Assembly: GCA_965205975.1 (NCBI GenBank)
Contig: OZ242195.1
Location: 4,672,001-4,736,000, forward strand
Direction of reading: 5' to 3'
Length of the DNA stretch: 64,000 bases
Origin: Candidatus Latescibacterota bacterium
Lineage (GTDB): Bacteria; Latescibacterota; UBA2968
In this document: positions 45,867-54,072 of the stretch, piece after piece
Position numbering within the stretch: the first letter of the stretch is position 1
How the letters are laid out: each line of letters starts with the position of its first letter
Made by a program: the position numbers and the translations under genes
The notes under the pieces: generated by a model
The model's database searches: none
What the model was told of the DNA's origin: nothing
The model's input: only the letters and a program-made list of their open reading frames with translations

Positions 45867-45911
45867 TGGTTCGCTGTGAGGATATGGTGAAAAACAAAGG
45901 TTTTATTGCGT

Positions 45912-46487
45912 ATGTCAAAGACAAAATGGTGCGTAAAACTCGATTATGCGAAAACAATTGCCGATCCATTGCGCCGTCGGCTCTATGTTTGCGCGCTTGT
46001 GGCCGCAGCATTGCCGCAAGCGAAAAAGTTTCCGTATGTCATCGTTGGTGGCAATGCCCTGGAGTTCTATACGCTTGGTGCTTATGCCACTGTGGATGTC
46101 GATCTCGTGAGTGAAAGGCGAACCGAAATTGGCAATTTGTTGGAAAGCTGGGGGTTTGATCAGACGGGCAGGCATTGGCATCACGTGGGGCTGGATATTG
46201 CGATTGAGATTCCCGATGATGTTCTCGCGGGATCTGAAGATAAGGTGACACAGGTCGAGATTGAGGATTTGACTGTCTATATTATCGGTGTGGAAGATCT
46301 CATTATTGATCGGCTGGGTGCTTATGTCCATTGGGATTCAACCGATGATGGAAATTGGGCGCAGGAACTCATGGCGCTATACCAACAAGATATTGATTGG
46401 GCATATCTCAAAACCCGCGCTCAGACAGAAGGCGTGATAGAGGCATTGATTGCGTTTAGAGATCAGGCTGAGGAGGACAGAGGTTGA
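45912..46487 (+). CDS. Nucleotidyltransferase-fold protein (DUF6036-like)
   Basis: VIVGGNALEFYT...ATVDVDLV, EDLIIDRL, IDWAYL. Confidence 0.75.
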   Translation: MSKTKWCVKLDYAKTIADPLRRRLYVCALVAAALPQAKKFPYVIVGGNALEFYTLGAYATVDVDLVSERRTEIGNLLESWGFDQTGRHWHHVGLDIAIEIPDDVLAGSEDKVTQVEIEDLTVYIIGVEDLIIDRLGAYVHWDSTDDGNWAQELMALYQQDIDWAYLKTRAQTEGVIEALIAFRDQAEEDRG

Positions 46488-46714
46488 AAACTGTAAATTT
46501 TGATCAACACGTTCGAGAGATACGACCGCGTGCGAGACGCTATCAACTCGAGCAACGCACGCGGCGACGTCAGCGCCTGCCCCGTCGTCGTCCTCGCGAT
46601 GCGGAGGCACGTCGGAGTCTGATTCAGTTGGCGTTGAAACGTCGGGCGCAGTGGTTGGAAGACGGTAGATTAGAAAAGATCGGCCCCAGACACTATCGCT
46701 TGCATCTCGATTAA
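46484..46714 (+). CDS. Small Arg-rich hypothetical protein coupled to the NTase
   Basis: 4-nt TTGA overlap and GAGGAGG RBS. Confidence 0.55.
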   Translation: MKTVNFDQHVREIRPRARRYQLEQRTRRRQRLPRRRPRDAEARRSLIQLALKRRAQWLEDGRLEKIGPRHYRLHLD

Positions 46715-46981: not shown

Positions 46982-48427
46982 GTGGGTCATTTGCTTTGGT
47001 TATAGCCAATGCGTAATTTTAGATATATCTTTATGCATCAGCAAGAGCTTTCACATTTTCGTCTTTATCGTGGAGGTATAATGGCCCGAAGGCAAAATAA
47101 CCCCCTGCGTATTTTAACAGCAGAAGAACGCACCACCCTGTATGCCATCAGCCGTAGTTTAACACAACCGGCTGCCCCTGTTGCGCGTGCCAAAGCCTTA
47201 CTGGCCGTATCCGAAGGGCATTCGTTTAGTGAAGCGGCTCGAAGGGCAGGTCGTCGCAGTGGTGATGCCGTCAGTCAGTTAGTCGCCCGCTTTAATCAAG
47301 AAGGGATAGCAGCCATAGAACCCCGATACGGGGGTGGACGACAAGTGATCTATACAGAAAAAGAACGCCAACGTATTCTTTGTGAGATAAACCGTGTGCC
47401 AGATCGCATACAGGATGGGACAGCAACCTGGTCGCTTTCGACGCTTCAAGCAGCACTGAGAAAAGCCCCTGATGGGTTGCCCAATGTCAGCACCTATACG
47501 ATTTGGACCGTATTGCATGACGCGGGCTGGACCTATCAAAAGGATCGGACATGGTGTATGACTGGTCAAGTGGTACGTAAGCGAAAAACAGGTGTGGTCA
47601 CCGTGACTGATCCGGATGCACAAGCAAAAAAAAAAGCTCATTGAGAAAGCCTACACGCTCGGTGAAAAAATGGGGCTATCCGTCTGGTGTGAGGATGAAG
47701 CCGGTCCCTTTCAAACCATCCCTTACCCCGGACAGCGCTGGCATCCTGAAGGGCGACCCCATCGTTTGCCACACGAGTATGTTCGATCAGGTACAGCCAA
47801 GCTGATGACGCTGTTCCATCCCAAAACAGGTCGCCTGCGTGTGCGGGGAACCACAAGCACAGCCAATCAGGTTTTGCACCCCTGGCTGAAAGAAGAACTC
47901 ACCGCGATCCTGAAAGGCTTACCAAAGGTAAAAAAGACGCATAAAGCAAAGCAGAATCGCGCATTATGGCAGACCTGGCAAGCGGGATTAGAGATGCCTA
48001 TAACCCTGCCTGAAGACCTCCCGCCATTGCGCCTGCTACTTGTGATGGATAACTTGAAAGGACATCACACGACATCGTTGATCTTATGGCTATTCTCTCA
48101 AGGGGTTATGCCGCTTTATACCCCCCTTGGCGGATCTTGGTTAAATATGACAGAGTCCATACAGCGCATCTTGAAACGGCGAGGACTGGACGGACACTAT
48201 CCCCAAACACCTGAGCAAATCATCGACTGGTTGGAAGCCACTGCTGCGGGATGGAATGGTAATCCAACGCCTTTCGAGTGGGGTGGTAAAAGAGCAAAAC
48301 GACGACAGCACAGCAGAGATAGACGCTATGCCATAGGCGGATCAAGGGCCTTCACCAGATCACCTTTGAGACGGTCTAAATCTGCACTCTATCAATGGCA
48401 ACGCGCATACCAAATGACCCACTAGTA
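46977..48427 (+). mobile_element. IS630-family insertion sequence
   Basis: Perfect 17-bp inverted ends TACTAGTGGGTCATTTG / CAAATGACCCACTAGTA (including TA); HTH ORF plus DDE ORF. Confidence 0.92.
47081..48425 (+). CDS. IS630 transposase split into two frames at an A10 run (47081-47644 HTH; about 47625-48425 DDE)
   Basis: RAKALL...[34 protein letters not shown]. Confidence 0.88.
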
Positions 48428-48650
48428 TTTGGCCAGAAACAATTGGATAATTTGTATTTAGTTAGCTTTTTCACTAATCATAAGACAATTTTAGAGAGAA
48501 CGGGACAGATTAATATGAGGGTCTTTTCAAGATGCTTCATTATCTTTTGATACATTTCATCATTTGTTTGCATCAACTCCTCCTGTGTCAACCACATTGC
48601 CAATTGTAACTTATTTCAGACTGAGAAGATTCCATTTGACATTGAATATA

Positions 48651-48686
48651 AAAAAGTCGTGAGTGCGCAAACCCTCACGACTTTTT
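48651..48686 (-). terminator. Terminator closing the island operon
   Basis: AAAAAGTCGTGAG...CTCACGACTTTTT, 24 nt past the kinase stop. Confidence 0.8.
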
Positions 48687-48709: not shown

Positions 48710-49297
48710 TCAGTTTCCAGTTGGACCTATCCAATGCCGACAGACATCATCAAATCCTTTCTTCCCACGTACCCATTTTAGAATAACTTCAATAATCCTA
48801 TCCAACTCATAGTTACCATTAACAACCAAATCGGCCCGTTCAAGCAGAAGCTTCTTGACCTGTTCCTCGGTGGAGTGCTTTTCAATTTGGGCAAGATAAT
48901 CCAGATCATCTGAAGGTTTATTCTTCAATCTTGAAAATCGAATCGCTTCGTCTACCTGGACATAGATAAGCGATAGTTCAGAAGGTAGGACTATTTTCCG
49001 GATTTCATTCAATACCTTTAGATGGCGTATCCCATCAACAACCAGATTCTGGCCTGGTATCCAATCAACCTGATTCAACACGGACCAACAGAACTGGCGG
49101 CAGTCATTCTCTACCAAACTTTCTCCAATATCCTGCAAAATTTCTCTGGAGTTTTCCAGTCCTCGTCTTTGAGCGATACTCCGCACATAGTTTCCAAAAC
49201 TTACCCTCGGAAAACCTAATTGCTGCGCTACACACTCTGATATAGCTGTTTTTCCAGTTCCAATTTTACCTGAAAAACCCAGCACAAATGGTTTCAA
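48710..49297 (-). CDS. P-loop nucleoside-monophosphate kinase-like protein
   Basis: GFSGKIGTGKT, VSFGNYVR, REILQDIGE, VVDGIRH. Confidence 0.85.
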   Translation of the reverse strand: MKPFVLGFSGKIGTGKTAISECVAQQLGFPRVSFGNYVRSIAQRRGLENSREILQDIGESLVENDCRQFCWSVLNQVDWIPGQNLVVDGIRHLKVLNEIRKIVLPSELSLIYVQVDEAIRFSRLKNKPSDDLDYLAQIEKHSTEEQVKKLLLERADLVVNGNYELDRIIEVILKWVRGKKGFDDVCRHWIGPTGN

Positions 49298-49311: not shown

Positions 49312-49854
49312 TTACTCGCGGCTAAATGGAATTTCAGATGCCCTTTTTATGACCACCCATCCTCGACGGTCTCGTTTCTTAACATCCAGCGGTTTTGTAG
49401 TACGTACGTGCCGTATTTTCATTAAAGTAGCAAATGAAGCTTTTTGACGGCTTGTCCAGAATTCCGGATCTTCGGCACAAAGAGCTTCAGTAAATTGAGT
49501 CCGTATTTCTCTCCAAGACTCTGAATCCAACAAATAAAACCAGGCAGTACTCACTTGACATATTCCAACTATTGGTCCTCCTGATTTTTTAAGTAAAACT
49601 AAATCGCCTTTATTTACCTGCCCATAGGGAGCACACCTGTTGGATGAAAACCTTGATTCTACAGTCTTCTTACCATCAAGAATAAACTGAAGATAAGGTT
49701 CGATAAAGATTGCAAGATGAACCGCATACGGTGCTGGTTCCTCAGGATTGAATTCCTGAAGATAGCTATTCCAAAAAGTATCCTCCCTGAATTCTGACTG
49801 CAGATAATCAATGATAAATGAACTAAAATTCCTGAGAGAACGGAAATCCTCCAT
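49312..49854 (-). CDS. ASCH domain protein
   Basis: PYLQFILDGKKTVESR (GxKxxExR), GDLVLLK..GPIVG. Confidence 0.87.
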   Translation of the reverse strand: MEDFRSLRNFSSFIIDYLQSEFREDTFWNSYLQEFNPEEPAPYAVHLAIFIEPYLQFILDGKKTVESRFSSNRCAPYGQVNKGDLVLLKKSGGPIVGICQVSTAWFYLLDSESWREIRTQFTEALCAEDPEFWTSRQKASFATLMKIRHVRTTKPLDVKKRDRRGWVVIKRASEIPFSRE

Positions 49855-50424
49855 AGCTTAGATTCTCCCCTTTTTCGATGTCTATGATTCTGTTGATTTG
49901 ATCAGAAGTAACAGACACCAACTTTGCTTCGTCTGGTTTCAACTGACCTTTCAGATTTTTCGAAACGGCTATGTGGGGAGAGGTACCACAGGCCAATGCC
50001 TGAAAGATAAGTTCTAATACGTTAAGACCATCGCACGCGAACACACGGTTTCCTGATGTCCAAACATCAACCTGTTGACGACGGGGATCTCTTCGGCTTA
50101 CGGTAGGATTGACATGCACTCCAAAGGAATGCGTGAAAATACGCTTCATACCAGGGAGGGGCAAGAAGAACTACCGATGCTTGAAAATCGGGAGGTGGAT
50201 CTCTAAGAGCGTCATTCGGCTTGTCGGGCTTGTCGGAACGCACCAGATGATATTGTTCTGACCGTTTCGCCGTTCAACCTCATCTGTCTGACAACGTCCA
50301 GAATGTGTGAAGGGTAAACTCCTGGAAGTGACATCAGTATCTGATCCAGATTTTTTTAATTCCGTGTAACGGCTTTATTTATCTAATCTTCGACCTTTCT
50401 TTCGAATTCGTTGGCAGCAATCAT
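49823..50424 (-). pseudogene. Decayed DPPW/Y-type amino-methyltransferase-like gene
   Basis: ATGA-coupled to the radical SAM stop; in-frame stops at 50385 and 50358; LPGVYPS; second frame VVLL-APPWY-EAYF (50162-50148); third frame SRRDPRR..DVWTSGNR. Confidence 0.65.
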
Positions 50425-51443
50425 CTGTTTAATGACACTCCTTTAAGTGGCACATCGACAATACAGCACTCCCTTTCAGTACCTGTAAAACGACATTCCA
50501 AACTTTGTTGCCAAGCTTCTATGGCTATCCATTGATTCTTCAGAGCTTCTTCAAATCTTTGTGTTAACCTCTTACCCATTGGTGCAAATTCGCGGATCTC
50601 AAGCGGGACTATACGAAGCGGCAAATTTTCATCCAGTGTCTGAAGGCGATCAAGAAAATGGTTCATATCGTCTTCTATTTTGTTTGACGACAATGATGTA
50701 AATGTCGCGTAGCCATACAGATCGATTTTGAGATGTAGAAATCTTTTCATCAATTCAAACTGACGACCAAAAAGTAAGGGGTCTGCTTGGGTGTTAAAAG
50801 AAAATGATTCAGGACTAAAACCTTTGAAACAGCATACTCGGCCATAATTAGAAAATCCCTCTATTCGTTCAAGATCAATGTCGGAGAGATAATTCCAAAA
50901 ATAGTCATTGCTCAGATTATCGTCTGACCAAAGATAAACTTGCTGCTCAATACCACGTTCCTGAATTTCTTGCATCATCCACGGTACCCATTCAGGAACT
51001 AAATCAGGCTGTCCTCCTGTTAGATCAATTACACATGGAGGATTGGACTGATCAAGATAGAGGTCAATCAGTTCGGCAGGTTTGACCAAGGTAGAGAATT
51101 TGTGATTAGCAGATAGCAATTCGAAGGGCACATAGCAATACCAGCATCTCCAATTGCACGAGGCATTTTGAAAAACCTGTGCTCGCATCTTATCTTTTGG
51201 TGCTATATCAAGAGCTCTGCAGACCGGATCAATTGGTAAGGGATTCTCTGGCCACCCCTCGCTCGTTTTACGACCAAAATGCCGTATGCGACCTAGGCCC
51301 TTACAATTAGGAGGCTCACTCAGATCCTGCTCTTGTTCTGTGCCGATGAAATTGGTGATGAGCAGACGACGGTTCTCAAGATCTACTGATTTTTTCCTGA
51401 GGTGTTCAGAAAATTCGTCTGTATTGATCGTCTTGCTGCTCAT
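50421..51443 (-). CDS. Radical SAM protein of unknown subfamily
   Basis: CNWRCWYC (CxxxCxxC), IDLTGGQPDL. Confidence 0.9.
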   Translation of the reverse strand: MSSKTINTDEFSEHLRKKSVDLENRRLLITNFIGTEQEQDLSEPPNCKGLGRIRHFGRKTSEGWPENPLPIDPVCRALDIAPKDKMRAQVFQNASCNWRCWYCYVPFELLSANHKFSTLVKPAELIDLYLDQSNPPCVIDLTGGQPDLVPEWVPWMMQEIQERGIEQQVYLWSDDNLSNDYFWNYLSDIDLERIEGFSNYGRVCCFKGFSPESFSFNTQADPLLFGRQFELMKRFLHLKIDLYGYATFTSLSSNKIEDDMNHFLDRLQTLDENLPLRIVPLEIREFAPMGKRLTQRFEEALKNQWIAIEAWQQSLECRFTGTERECCIVDVPLKGVSLNR

Positions 51444-51461: not shown

Positions 51462-52052
51462 TTAAGACTGCCTTTTCTTCTGTCTGATTGGAGGCACCTT
51501 CTCCCCCTTTACAGTCAAAGTAGGTAATTTCTCATTTATATAGAGCATAACAAGCTCTGTAACGTACTTGATCTCTTTCTCCGTGAGGTCTCTGCCGAGT
51601 GGGATATCGTGCCAATATTCCATGCATTTCCGACAACAACAGGCAGTAGCATGTTGCGCATAATAGATCGAATTACCCTTGAAAGGAGTTTGACGTCCAT
51701 CCCGATTGGGCTCCGCAGGCCCTACGTACTTACGAATCCTGTGTTCTGCAGCTTCTTTGAGACGAATTAGACCCTTTCTACGAGCATGATTTATTGCTCT
51801 AAGGTCAATATCTTTGTGCCAATAGTGGTGACGAAAATATTCTATCTTCAATGAATCAAATGTATGCTTAACATCTGACAAATTGCGTTTATGTACCCGC
51901 TTCCAATCAACTAAATCAGCATCACATTGGCGACATCTTCCTTGCTCATTCTTCTGCTTCATCCGTTGGGTAGCTTTGAAGCAATGAAGGTTGTCTTCGC
52001 AATTTGTGCTGGTGCATGTAATCTTCAACGGTTTCAGTTCTTTTTTAGCCAT
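51462..52052 (-). CDS. DUF4186 family protein with Cys-rich N-terminal extension
   Basis: PAEPNRDGRQTP, AQHATACCCRKCMEYWHDIP; N-terminal CTSTNC...HC...CRQC. Confidence 0.87.
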   Translation of the reverse strand: MAKKELKPLKITCTSTNCEDNLHCFKATQRMKQKNEQGRCRQCDADLVDWKRVHKRNLSDVKHTFDSLKIEYFRHHYWHKDIDLRAINHARRKGLIRLKEAAEHRIRKYVGPAEPNRDGRQTPFKGNSIYYAQHATACCCRKCMEYWHDIPLGRDLTEKEIKYVTELVMLYINEKLPTLTVKGEKVPPIRQKKRQS

Positions 52053-52062
52053 GCGTCAATCC

Positions 52063-53511
52063 TCAATACAGACCATCATCTATTGCACGCATTAGTAGAT
52101 CTCTATCGAATTCGTTGAGGTAACTAAGATCTACGTGTTCGAGTAGTATATCCCGAGCGGTGACCCAGGGTAGAGGATCTGTTTTCTGCAGGTTGCTGGC
52201 TGCTCCCCACCAATTTAACTTCTGTGACGACAGTCGATATGCTATGTAATTGGCAAGAGCATCTGCCTCTACACTTTCCTTTTCAGCCACTTCGGGAACG
52301 ACCCTTTTCAACCATTCTACTTTTCCTTCAGCAGCCTCAACACATTTTTCAGCAAGTTCCTCCGCGCGTCCCGCAAGCATGACATCATCAGCGAAATCAT
52401 TCGCAGCGGCCTCCTCATCAGAGCCTTGCCTTTCTATTGGATCAGTCTCAACCATAGCATATTCTTCGCTGTCGGGATCTTCGCCCGCATGGGCAAGTTC
52501 ATGCAAAAGATCGAATAGCCAACGCGCTAATGAATTCGTCCCTTGTTTCAGTACGATCACATTCCGGTATTCTATCCGCCAACAGGCACCATGGAACGCG
52601 CCTGGATCACGCAACGGCAACACGGGTATACCTAAGCCCCATACATAGCGTAGCACATTTTCAAATGTGACAGATCCATAGGAAGACAGTATCTCCTCTC
52701 TCACTTTGAGACCATTTGTAGGCACTTTTTGTGGTTTCAGATCCTGCGTTGTATCAAGAAGATGCAGACCCAAAATATGGGCAAACATAGTATAGGCACT
52801 TAATCTGGTTCTTTTTGCATATACAGGAGTTTTAAATCTTCCAGCTCTCGCAATAGCAGAATCCATTATTAATGGACGAGAACCAAAGATCAGAGTAGGA
52901 GACCATCCAAATACGCGAGCAATTGCTGTAGCAACCTGCAATGGTACATTTCCGGTTTGGCTCTTTTCATTCTCTTGTTCTATGTATGCGACTAAATCTC
53001 GCGGCAGTAATCGATTGAATATAAAATTCTTCTCAAAACCGGATTTTTCCATCCGACTGAAGATTTTTTCCAGTGAAAATCGTTCTGAAGAAAGAAAAAG
53101 GTCCTCTTGCATTTCAATACCTAGAGCTTCTACGATCTCTTTCAATCGTTCAAGATTGGCAGTCGCATATTCATTTGCTTCGTATCGCTGTATTTGTTGC
53201 TCTTTGAGTCCGAGACGATGGGCAAGTTCCTTCTGAGATAACCCCATAGCAATCCGAGCCTGAATGAGAGCACGAGGAAGATCAGTAAGTGAAAGACGTT
53301 CGAGAACATCGCGCTTACCTTCTACAAGCGCGTCGTATTCCTTTACCTGCATACGGAGTTCCTCATATTGACTTCTCAATGCATCCTGATGAGCTTTCTG
53401 GAGTAGAGGATGAATATTCTTATCTTTATTTTCAGCCAACTCCGCCAAAGCACCCTCAAACTTCCTCATCTGGGCCTTGGTGATCCGATATTGTCTCTCG
53501 TTTTTGATCAT
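52063..53511 (-). CDS. XRE-family HTH fused to ImmA/IrrE (DUF955) metallopeptidase
   Basis: MIKNERQY N-terminus; LSQKELAHRLGLKEQQIQRYE; LLHELAH (HExxH); EEAAANDFA. Confidence 0.9.
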   Translation of the reverse strand: MIKNERQYRITKAQMRKFEGALAELAENKDKNIHPLLQKAHQDALRSQYEELRMQVKEYDALVEGKRDVLERLSLTDLPRALIQARIAMGLSQKELAHRLGLKEQQIQRYEANEYATANLERLKEIVEALGIEMQEDLFLSSERFSLEKIFSRMEKSGFEKNFIFNRLLPRDLVAYIEQENEKSQTGNVPLQVATAIARVFGWSPTLIFGSRPLIMDSAIARAGRFKTPVYAKRTRLSAYTMFAHILGLHLLDTTQDLKPQKVPTNGLKVREEILSSYGSVTFENVLRYVWGLGIPVLPLRDPGAFHGACWRIEYRNVIVLKQGTNSLARWLFDLLHELAHAGEDPDSEEYAMVETDPIERQGSDEEAAANDFADDVMLAGRAEELAEKCVEAAEGKVEWLKRVVPEVAEKESVEADALANYIAYRLSSQKLNWWGAASNLQKTDPLPWVTARDILLEHVDLSYLNEFDRDLLMRAIDDGLY

Positions 53512-53513
53512 AT

Positions 53514-53957
53514 CTACCACCCACTTAGGTCTATGGCTATAATCCCTTTTGGATCGCCCGTAGCTTTATCGGTCTGGAAAAAATCGAGAAAAATCCTGTA
53601 GGGAGGCGTAGTTTCTGCCTCAAGATGAGCAGGAAAGAATTCTCCATGGTATTTGGCTTTTTGTGCCGCCCGTTGATTATCGAAGTTTAACAGAACGGGA
53701 TCAAGTAATGCCAGATCAACCCCGCTGTCATCCCAGCATGCATCAAAATCTCCAGGGATTTCTTTATCTGTAACAAAACTTCCATCTATGTAAACAGTCG
53801 AGCAGCCGGCTGCTTTCAAAGACTTTAATCCTTGCTCCAGGCCATCTAAGAGTCTGCGCCTATGAGCGGTCACACCGAATCTGATTTTGAATTTTTCCCA
53901 AGTTGTCCAATATATGCCGACGGGTAAGCATCCGTTAGAATCGAAAAGTGGTATCAT
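53514..53957 (-). CDS. Pol-beta-type nucleotidyltransferase (DUF6932-like)
   Basis: MIPLFD.NG.LP.G; YIDGSFVTDKEIPGDFD; PKGIIAIDL. Confidence 0.82.
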   Translation of the reverse strand: MIPLFDSNGCLPVGIYWTTWEKFKIRFGVTAHRRRLLDGLEQGLKSLKAAGCSTVYIDGSFVTDKEIPGDFDACWDDSGVDLALLDPVLLNFDNQRAAQKAKYHGEFFPAHLEAETTPPYRIFLDFFQTDKATGDPKGIIAIDLSGW

Positions 53958-54031
53958 AGATTCGCCGTATCTTCTGACAGATTCCGACGGGTAGCAGCTG
54001 CCCGCCAAAGCTAAATCCAATAAAGTATAAA

Positions 54032-54072
54032 TTATCAACACAACAATATAGTTGTGTTGATAAAAATGTCAA
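54032..54072 (-). promoter_or_regulatory. Island promoter with a perfect palindromic operator
   Basis: Minus strand TTGACA(54072-54067)-16 nt-TATATT(54050-54045); TTATCAACACAAC-aatata-GTTGTGTTGATAA. Confidence 0.8.

Follow-up and report, generated by a model that had tools for sequence, protein, structure and literature searches.

Why should one gene in the middle of an operon fall apart while its six neighbours stay open? The question is raised by a stretch of 64,000 nucleotides (the window, meaning that whole stretch) from a Candidatus Latescibacterota bacterium, positions 4,672,001 to 4,736,000 of contig OZ242195.1 in GenBank assembly GCA_965205975.1. An original prediction, made from the letters alone, had recognized in it a methyltransferase pseudogene spread over three reading frames. 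We find that this remnant, which lies between a radical S-adenosylmethionine (SAM) enzyme gene and an ASCH-domain gene, is a real, old and inherited pseudogene gutted by deletions, and that its intact counterpart stands fifth in a conserved, mobile cassette of seven genes. Our overall reading, in which we place about as much belief as doubt, is that an accessory adenine-N6 writer was lost here from a defence cassette sensing modified nucleotides.

The remnant (50424-49832, minus strand, like all cassette features given below) was read from the ATG at 50424, which overlaps the stop codon of the radical SAM gene. In tblastn, the 426-aa homologue P0002 matches three segments in order, its residues 1-67, 165-199 and 335-426 corresponding to segments 1 (79% identity, E = 4e-26), 2 (97%, 3e-17) and 3 (96%, 3e-52), an agreement that chance could not produce. 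Because blocks of codons are missing between these ordered matches, the frame changes are deletion junctions. Segment 1 (50215-50424) comprises codons 1-70, the N-terminal helical domain, and carries a TAG stop at codon 14 (50383-50385) and a TAA stop at codon 23 (50356-50358). The first deletion, with its junction at 50214 and a size by protein alignment of about 287 nt, took codons 71-166 of the full-length relative P0069, including the HPLDxxW motif, motif I (GxPS) and strands 1-3. Segment 2 (50109-50213) retains strand 4 with the DPPWY motif, here altered to APPWY (GCC at 50162-50160). The second deletion (junction at 50108, about 404 nt by the same alignment) took P0069 codons 202-336, which hold strands 5-7 and a portion of the C-terminal domain. 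Segment 3 (50107-49832), in a third reading frame, encodes the C-terminal 92 codons and forms part of a 113-aa tail open reading frame (ORF; 49823-50164) that overlaps the ASCH start.

Although both deletion sizes derive from protein comparison, with no intact DNA behind them, the lengths add up: 593 nt of remnant plus 287 and 404 make 1284, or 428 x 3, against the gap-free, 428-aa P0069, with one base remaining at each joint. The remnant thus keeps 197 of 428 codons, and in the P0069 model only the DPPWY-bearing strand survives of the core of the fold, so that most of the predicted SAM-binding fold is removed by the two deletions. When the tail was used to search for longer proteins, 67 matches were obtained, mostly of 380-450 aa, the best being P0002 (96% identical); Pfam gave no match in the remnant pieces. 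A scrambled or split gene with its middle pieces elsewhere was considered and rejected, as tblastn of P0002 against the genome of the window (G000) returned the three segments and otherwise only matches at E>=0.5. On re-reading, the original prediction's description of a lone tail ORF, the stops, APPWY and six open neighbours was borne out, as was the three-frame pseudogene itself. The two frame breaks it had reported are present, not as small breaks but as the deletion junctions. It had also noted a duplication preceding the frame change. This 9-nt tandem duplication (50219-50236), encoding RQA-RQA, is no lesion, since it is in frame and two close homologues, P0073 and the full-length P0069, also have RQARQA, which likewise rules it out as the cause of the first frame break.

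Independent assemblies carry the same lesions. The cassette of G009, another genome of the same genus, aligns to that of G000 without a gap across 5359 nt at 96.6% identity. It shares the two deletion junctions, the TAA stop and the Asp-to-Ala change; its codon 14 is Trp. In each of four further sequencing runs from four studies (two sponge metagenomes, one marine metagenome and one coded organism), compared as contigs rather than reads, a single contig spans 49650-50650 with 0 gaps and both deletions. Among the alleles of these runs (X5, X6, X8 and X10), X6 and X10 retain Asp184, and X8 and X10, like G009, have Trp at codon 14; with G000 and G009 included, the TAA stop is found in five of six alleles (G000, G009, X5, X6 and X8), X10 having seven unlisted differences. 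Since some deletion-bearing alleles still have Trp14 or Asp184, the deletions are older than the codon-14 stop and the Asp-to-Ala change. They go back to an ancestor shared by several related lineages of Latescibacterota type, and the point lesions have accumulated since; the altered catalytic residue of the original prediction is therefore real and secondary to the deletions. DNA of a close intact allele was seen neither in a metagenome scan with P0002 nor among 21 genomes of the genus, of which only G000 and G009 match.

The six deletion alleles differ by at most 27 letters in 1001. Pooled over them, the 26 listed variant sites comprise 12 synonymous and 14 non-synonymous changes, a mild synonymous excess (P = 0.008-0.064 against neutrality) in which conserved residues are nevertheless hit; between G000 and G009 alone, the remnant has nine synonymous and three non-synonymous differences. 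All four combinations of codon-14 and Asp184 states are present, which implies recombination, recurrent mutation or chimeric contigs, and X5 carries a 151-nt contig of an intact-type allele beside the deleted one. Recombination with intact alleles would be the simplest cause of the synonymous excess, though it may not explain it fully. RNA runs contain 0.06-0.23 of the sampled words.

Full-length DPPWY alleles (P0002, P0069, P0075) persist within one 90% identity cluster. In P0072, also a close allele of full length, the same catalytic Asp has independently become Val, which hints at repeated inactivation and fits relaxed selection equally well, and five members of the cluster on long contigs begin downstream of the normal start. 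As a side observation, P0070, P0071, P0072, P0076, P0077 and P0079, seen as protein only, start at residue ~121 or ~209 or have Val at the catalytic Asp, and are possibly further independent inactivations.

What did the intact gene encode? As the original prediction had foreseen, homologues are single ORFs of 400-440 aa with DPPW, located between radical SAM and ASCH genes. Across 100 aligned homologues, D184, P186, W187 and Y188 are present in 100 and P185 in 99; motif I reads G-x-P-S/T, the HPLDxxW, SRRD and WTSGNR motifs are conserved, and a C-terminal Glu414 is invariant. The family profile reaches 2044 representatives of 50% identity clusters (1311 at E<=1e-30); searched against the sequences of solved structures, its best match has E = 0.17. 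The AlphaFold model of P0069 (predicted local distance difference test score, pLDDT, 90.8) bears out the expected Rossmann-type SAM-binding fold: 512 chains match at Z>=8, the top rows being SAM-dependent enzymes aligned over residues ~79-285. Motif IV of class I enzymes is defined as (D/N/S)PP(Y/F/W) after strand 4, and in the model DPPWY follows the strand at 178-183. By model and alignment, the intact protein is thus a class I SAM-dependent N-transferase of Rossmann fold that carries DPPWY and has a helical domain at its N-terminus.

Which group it transfers is where two kinds of evidence part. PF10237 (N6-adenineMlase), whose eukaryotic members include EEF1AKMT1/Efm5 and ZCCHC4, matches 49 of the 100 homologues at E<=0.01 (best 9.4e-9) over the region from motif I to motif IV, the match spanning only ~100 of 166 profile positions. 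Three of eight homologues exceed its gathering threshold of 23.2 bits (26-32 bits), P0002 (18.1) and P0069 (18.0) falling below. In the Atlas, PF10237 clusters come first among the neighbours (0.97-0.98; the family on 19-32% of members), followed by BpsA_C clusters (0.92). By fold, BpsA-family structures hold Foldseek ranks 1-9 (E = 3e-11 to 4e-9), rank 1, titled predicted methyltransferase of P. furiosus, being presumably of the same family. In VIA, the BpsA match reaches Z 21.4 with 287 residues aligned (model 3-340, root-mean-square deviation 4.0, 10% identity), the N-terminal domain included.

BpsA (PDB 5XNC, 6J27; PF01861) is accordingly the closest solved fold, and both proteins have conserved C-terminal acidic residues. 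What distinguishes the transferase is an extra helical part modelled at ~340-428, beyond the BpsA-like region, its mobile-cassette context and the lack of GDDD, which is replaced after strand 1 by G-x-P-S/T, a positional equivalence inferred from the fold. In the available part of a study of BpsA, the GDDD motif is described as indispensable and C-terminal acidic residues as aminopropyl carriers (PMC12979288). As the GDDD that BpsA needs is lacking, the protein is an N-transferase that shares the architecture of BpsA without being one. The rival that it is nonetheless a BpsA-style aminopropyl or aminocarboxypropyl transferase, or a protein-amine methylase, with the cassette making a hypermodified base or small molecule, draws on the Foldseek ranks, the alignment through the N-terminal domain, the BpsA_C clusters and Glu414. 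Because of the lost GDDD, the absence of PF01861 (BpsA_C) from all 100 homologues at E<=0.01 as against 49 for PF10237, and the absence of any SAM decarboxylase from the cassette and its scanned flanks, we consider it unlikely. On the indirect evidence of the PF10237 matches and the linkage with PUA and ASCH genes, the intact enzyme most likely alkylates adenine N6 with methylation as the best guess, an assignment that stands evenly between belief and doubt. The methyltransferase of the original prediction therefore survives as a SAM-dependent Rossmann N-transferase, methyl transfer being likely and unproven.

The cassette was traced through two sets of loci: a radical-SAM-anchored set, for which the radical SAM protein served as query and the best 80 of 165 genome loci were taken, and a transferase-anchored set of 83, the best 80 of 515 metagenome matches plus three viral loci. 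The usual order in the former is DUF6932, helix-turn-helix (HTH)/peptidase, DUF4186, radical SAM, transferase, ASCH and kinase; all six partners are intact in 38 of the 80 loci by hand count, and the labels of the radical SAM tree span 16 phyla, one archaeon included. Of the transferase-anchored loci with flanks of 400 nt or more, 67/70 have radical SAM and 71/75 have ASCH. Eleven plasmid records match the transferase, seven over at least 80% of its length; Roseovarius pTHAF8_a carries all seven genes amid conjugation genes, and in Tolypothrix PCC 7712 the cassette lies within an 18.4-kb plasmid insertion, for which the accessible portion of the report lists HTH, DUF4186, ASCH and AAA genes with no function assigned (PMC9679502). 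Phage genomes gave no radical SAM homologue and one weak transferase match, and three viral contigs carry the transferase. The literature searched held no account of the seven-gene cassette, though Iyer et al. 2013, or Figure S1/Table S1 of the PUA-Cal-HAD preprint, could mention one.

The company that the cassette keeps was surveyed in 91 of 130 script-picked flanking ORFs, shorter ones, likely duplicates and shadow frames being dropped by eye. A Pfam match was found in 52 of the 91, with 19 in defence-type and 10 in mobility-type families, counts that come without a genome-wide baseline and take kin as independent. The defence-type families, whose roles we assume from general knowledge, are dCTP deaminase-like (5), HNH (3), PD-(D/E)XK (2), HD (2), Fic (2), TIR, WYL, RES, DpnII-like and AbiEii-type AAA. 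The dCTP deaminase-like and HD flanks together suggest a link with nucleotide-depletion defence. Among the individual loci L027, L030, L047, L052, L065, L014 and L026, dCTP deaminase-like genes flank the cassette in several from Dehalococcoidia/SAR202, and HD (dGTPase-like) genes do so in cyanobacterial ones.

In the window, the operon begins behind a sigma-70-like promoter with 11 of 12 consensus bases (54032-54072). A 13-bp perfect inverted repeat (54032-54063) lies over its -10 box and is probably the operator of the HTH protein. The repeat is unique in the genome and partly retained in two further genomes, G014 and G020, and in G009 a symmetric double change preserves the palindrome. The window shows no general enrichment of promoter-like sites (8 found versus 10.9 in shuffles). 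The first gene (53514-53960) encodes the DUF6932 protein (PF22014, E 1e-37; PADLOC PDC-M63A, E 3e-10), which we take from its GS and DxD motifs to be a candidate nucleotidyltransferase, and which had no match in a sequence search of solved structures. The second (52063-53520) joins an XRE-type HTH (HTH_3, E 6e-13; RmrA matches over the HTH only) to an ImmA/IrrE-like metallopeptidase with HELxH (Peptidase_M78, E 0.0017, below cut-off) and is probably a regulator or antitoxin. The DUF4186 protein, with conserved Cys/His motifs (51462-52052), and the radical SAM enzyme with CxxxCxxC (50421-51443; closest folds pyruvate formate-lyase (PFL)-activating enzyme, Z 16.1, and QueE, Z 12.9) precede the remnant. 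Behind it come the ASCH protein of the PUA superfamily (49312-49854; PF04266, 21.9 bits against a cut-off of 21.2), whose gene has its own purine-rich stretch upstream, and a P-loop kinase (48710-49297), assigned by family-library matches to the nucleoside-monophosphate/dephospho-CoA kinase type. A hairpin with a 10-nt loop and a T-tract (48650-48686), found by eye and not listed by the scanner, is probably the terminator. A joint structure prediction of the radical SAM enzyme and the intact transferase (score 0.00, without controls) was not used either way.

Just past the terminator, on the opposite strand, stands an IS630-like element of two overlapping ORFs (HTH, DDE_3; 47009-48425), and beside this insertion sequence a DUF6036 nucleotidyltransferase (45906-46714) followed by a 76-aa ORF resembles a toxin-antitoxin-type pair. 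In G009 a PLD-domain gene directly follows the kinase (L103:8595-9836); G000 lacks it at that place and has a copy 86.8% identical ~29 kb away (genome 4749817-4751064), followed by a 76-codon HTH-gene fragment (4752390-4752617), and the same HTH stretch has DNA matches in several other members of the genus. G020 and G014 (L101:3995-6035, L102:3997-6038) hold only the DUF6932-HTH pair, 95.5% identical, at another locus where it runs into the middle of a sulfatase-like frame, which suggests that a deletion took the five downstream genes or that the pair moves alone.

How selective, then, was the loss? The transferase is broken or absent in 14/77 assessable radical-SAM-anchored loci, compared with 4/78 for HTH, 4/80 for DUF4186, 6/75 for ASCH, 4/74 for the kinase and 20/78 for DUF6932 (Fisher P = 0.01-0.33, overstated since kin are not independent). 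These classes are automatic: L022, near a contig end, was counted broken, L060, with ASCH 109 nt after radical SAM, unassessable, and L059 intact, while L057 and L059, with several broken genes each, may come from noisy assemblies. In six loci the ASCH or kinase match begins 45-128 nt after radical SAM. Seven transferase absences need at least three changes on a quick radical SAM tree, two of them forced by well-supported branches. Being broken or absent repeatedly in unrelated lineages, the transferase is an accessory gene. The original prediction had inferred from a selective loss that the gene is dispensable or toxic, or that the operon was repurposed; dispensability is supported, and for toxicity or repurposing we found no evidence.

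The most serious competitor for what happened at this locus is that the whole cassette is decaying in the genus, the transferase having been hit early and its neighbours merely not yet. Of 53 genomes searched in the order, just two have the radical SAM gene, and in G014 and G020 nothing beyond the first two genes is left, so that the cassette as a whole is also disappearing from this lineage; the stray HTH fragment in G000, the IS630 element just outside the operon and final kinase codons unlike those of G009 point the same way. The neighbours' ratio of non-synonymous to synonymous polymorphism (pN/pS), 0.15-0.49 between G000 and G009, speaks for their retention but may predate the loss, as the remnant itself shows the nine-to-three synonymous surplus. 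We regard general decay as somewhat unlikely all the same, since neither G000 nor G009 has any of the six neighbours interrupted, the listed changes of the six deletion alleles put no stop in ASCH or radical SAM (partial genes, with 14 differences unlisted), the operator-like palindrome was preserved by a symmetric double change, and compact operons without the transferase exist in other phyla. Judged from their sequences, it is rather likely that the other six genes still function here, and they are probably still expressed.

Positive selection against a toxic or costly transferase could explain why losses recur across phyla, why the deletion allele is widespread, and the Val at the catalytic position of P0072 together with the downstream starts in its cluster. 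Relaxed selection accounts for the same data, however, the short members may be effects of gene calling or contig edges, and intact alleles persist in the cluster and beside the deleted one in X5, which together make this improbable. Even less credible is a surviving use for the pieces, whether short ORFs (40, 14 and 113 aa, chained by near-adjacent stops and starts) relay translation and so couple ribosomes to ASCH and kinase, or a C-terminal peptide is itself useful: the mild synonymous excess in the ancestral frames favours it, yet recombination can bring in synonymous variants from intact alleles, non-synonymous changes have struck the conserved Pro38, Asp184 and Pro185 along with the added stops, the tail begins inside a domain, and ASCH has its own upstream stretch. 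As for errors of assembly or sequencing, G000 is a single-contig genome and the comparison was with contigs, not raw reads. The identical junctions in G009 and in the contigs of all four runs nevertheless refute this for practical purposes and leave it a negligible chance; four other runs (three samples) that contain all sampled words may be the source material itself.

No described system covers the gene set, and the nearest relatives differ in telling ways. Prokaryotic viperins likewise have a radical SAM gene near a nucleotide-kinase-like gene, and weak pVip and VakA matches were found, but the pVip match covers only residues 94-169 around CxxxCxxC, NF038283 scores 19.3 bits against a cut-off of 180, and the fold is nearer to PFL-activating enzyme than to viperin (Z 11.0); by sequence match and modelled fold, the window enzyme is not a viperin. 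(PIN)-GNAT-EVE operons combine a modifier enzyme, ASCH and an AAA_17-type P-loop protein as the window cassette does, where, however, the modifier is a SAM transferase with a radical SAM enzyme and not GNAT, and no EVE or PIN domain occurs; those operons with ASCH and AAA_17 kinase are predicted conflict systems in the part of the source at hand (PMC7641849). With PUA-Calcineurin-CE-HAD and DS-9 the cassette shares a PUA-superfamily gene, here ASCH, directly after the transferase. It lacks a calcineurin-like or HAD gene and has radical SAM, DUF4186, kinase, DUF6932 and HTH/peptidase genes instead; none of its seven genes matches the PUA-like plus Calcineurin-CE or HAD families, and its reader is ASCH (PF04266) rather than the Pua-like domain (PF24405) of DS-9, so it is not a DS-9 member.

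A bridge to DS-9 is offered by five shorter homologues, of ~310 aa with DPPW, that lack the N-terminal domain and whose loci have no radical SAM or ASCH match (L184:4986-7354; L186:742-3110; L188:6908-9363; L190:6040-8393; L189:5950-8354, coordinates of the two-gene units). Short and long transferases align in hhalign at 99.9%. The next gene is a Pua-like plus metallophosphoesterase protein in 4/4 scanned, and the DS9_1_antiphage model NF053862 gives 300, 396 and 444 bits against a cut-off of 420, one of three tested passing. In these units the transferase stands where DS-9 has HAD. Their settings include a primase-like ORF (which we take to be P4-type), a viral contig, alphaproteobacterial plasmids and, for L188, adjacency to Gabija close to adenylosuccinate synthetase. 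As far as the sources could be seen, DS-9 is a validated two-gene system of metallophosphatase and HAD (PMC13092281), and PUA-Cal-HAD is activated by Dam-derived N6-methyl-dAMP (m6-dAMP), its PUA family being reported in association with adenylosuccinate synthetase and with N6-adenine methylases unaccompanied by restriction enzymes (bioRxiv 10.64898/2026.01.15.699771). Near two of the units a P-loop kinase domain forms the N-terminus of a 530-550 aa protein (L188:10202-11803; L189:4093-5736), the L188 copy being an adenylosuccinate synthetase-like fusion (PurZ model 199 bits, below cut-off).

From these comparisons, and mainly because a PUA-superfamily gene follows the transferase in both contexts, we propose a writer-reader model. 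By analogy, the cassette would use modified nucleotides to defend against phages or plasmids, a view we lean towards slightly. The transferase, perhaps with the radical SAM enzyme, would write a mark; ASCH would recognize the base or nucleotide that bears it, for instance once phage nucleases degrade the chromosome; the kinase would process the monophosphate; and the DUF6932 nucleotidyltransferase with the HTH/peptidase protein would form a regulated output in an autoregulating operon. The writer would plausibly be dispensable since host adenine methylases can supply the mark, as Dam does for PUA-Cal-HAD. An alternative, which we think quite unlikely, is that radical SAM enzyme and BpsA-fold transferase jointly write a new, non-methyl base or nucleotide mark that ASCH and kinase read, with nucleotidyltransferase and peptidase as output, the writer-less versions being reader-only and sensing marks of host or invader.

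Several points weigh against the preferred model of an accessory adenine-N6 writer lost from a modified-nucleotide-sensing defence cassette, beyond the rarity of the cassette in the order, the chance that the neighbours' low pN/pS predates the loss, and the limits of the flank survey. Methylation is not established because the best structural match is the aminopropyltransferase BpsA (Z 21.4), the next methyltransferase reaching Z 16.2. DUF6932 is broken or absent more often than the transferase. The five PF02086 and 16 PF01555 matches in G000 count in favour of the model but discriminate little, adenine methylases being common in bacteria. No PADLOC or NCBIfam model describes the gene set, which shows partial domain matches only, and the defence role is deduced from the company kept by another subfamily, the partner in the validated DS-9 being HAD and not this transferase.

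A pseudogene is by itself ordinary; the value of this one lies in pointing to a conserved and seemingly undescribed cassette. Should the cassette write a nucleotide mark and read it, the logic of m6-dAMP sensing would extend to ASCH domains, and DUF4186 and DUF6932 would gain functions. Whether the writer is needed could be judged directly from alleles that nature provides in both forms, with the transferase and without it.

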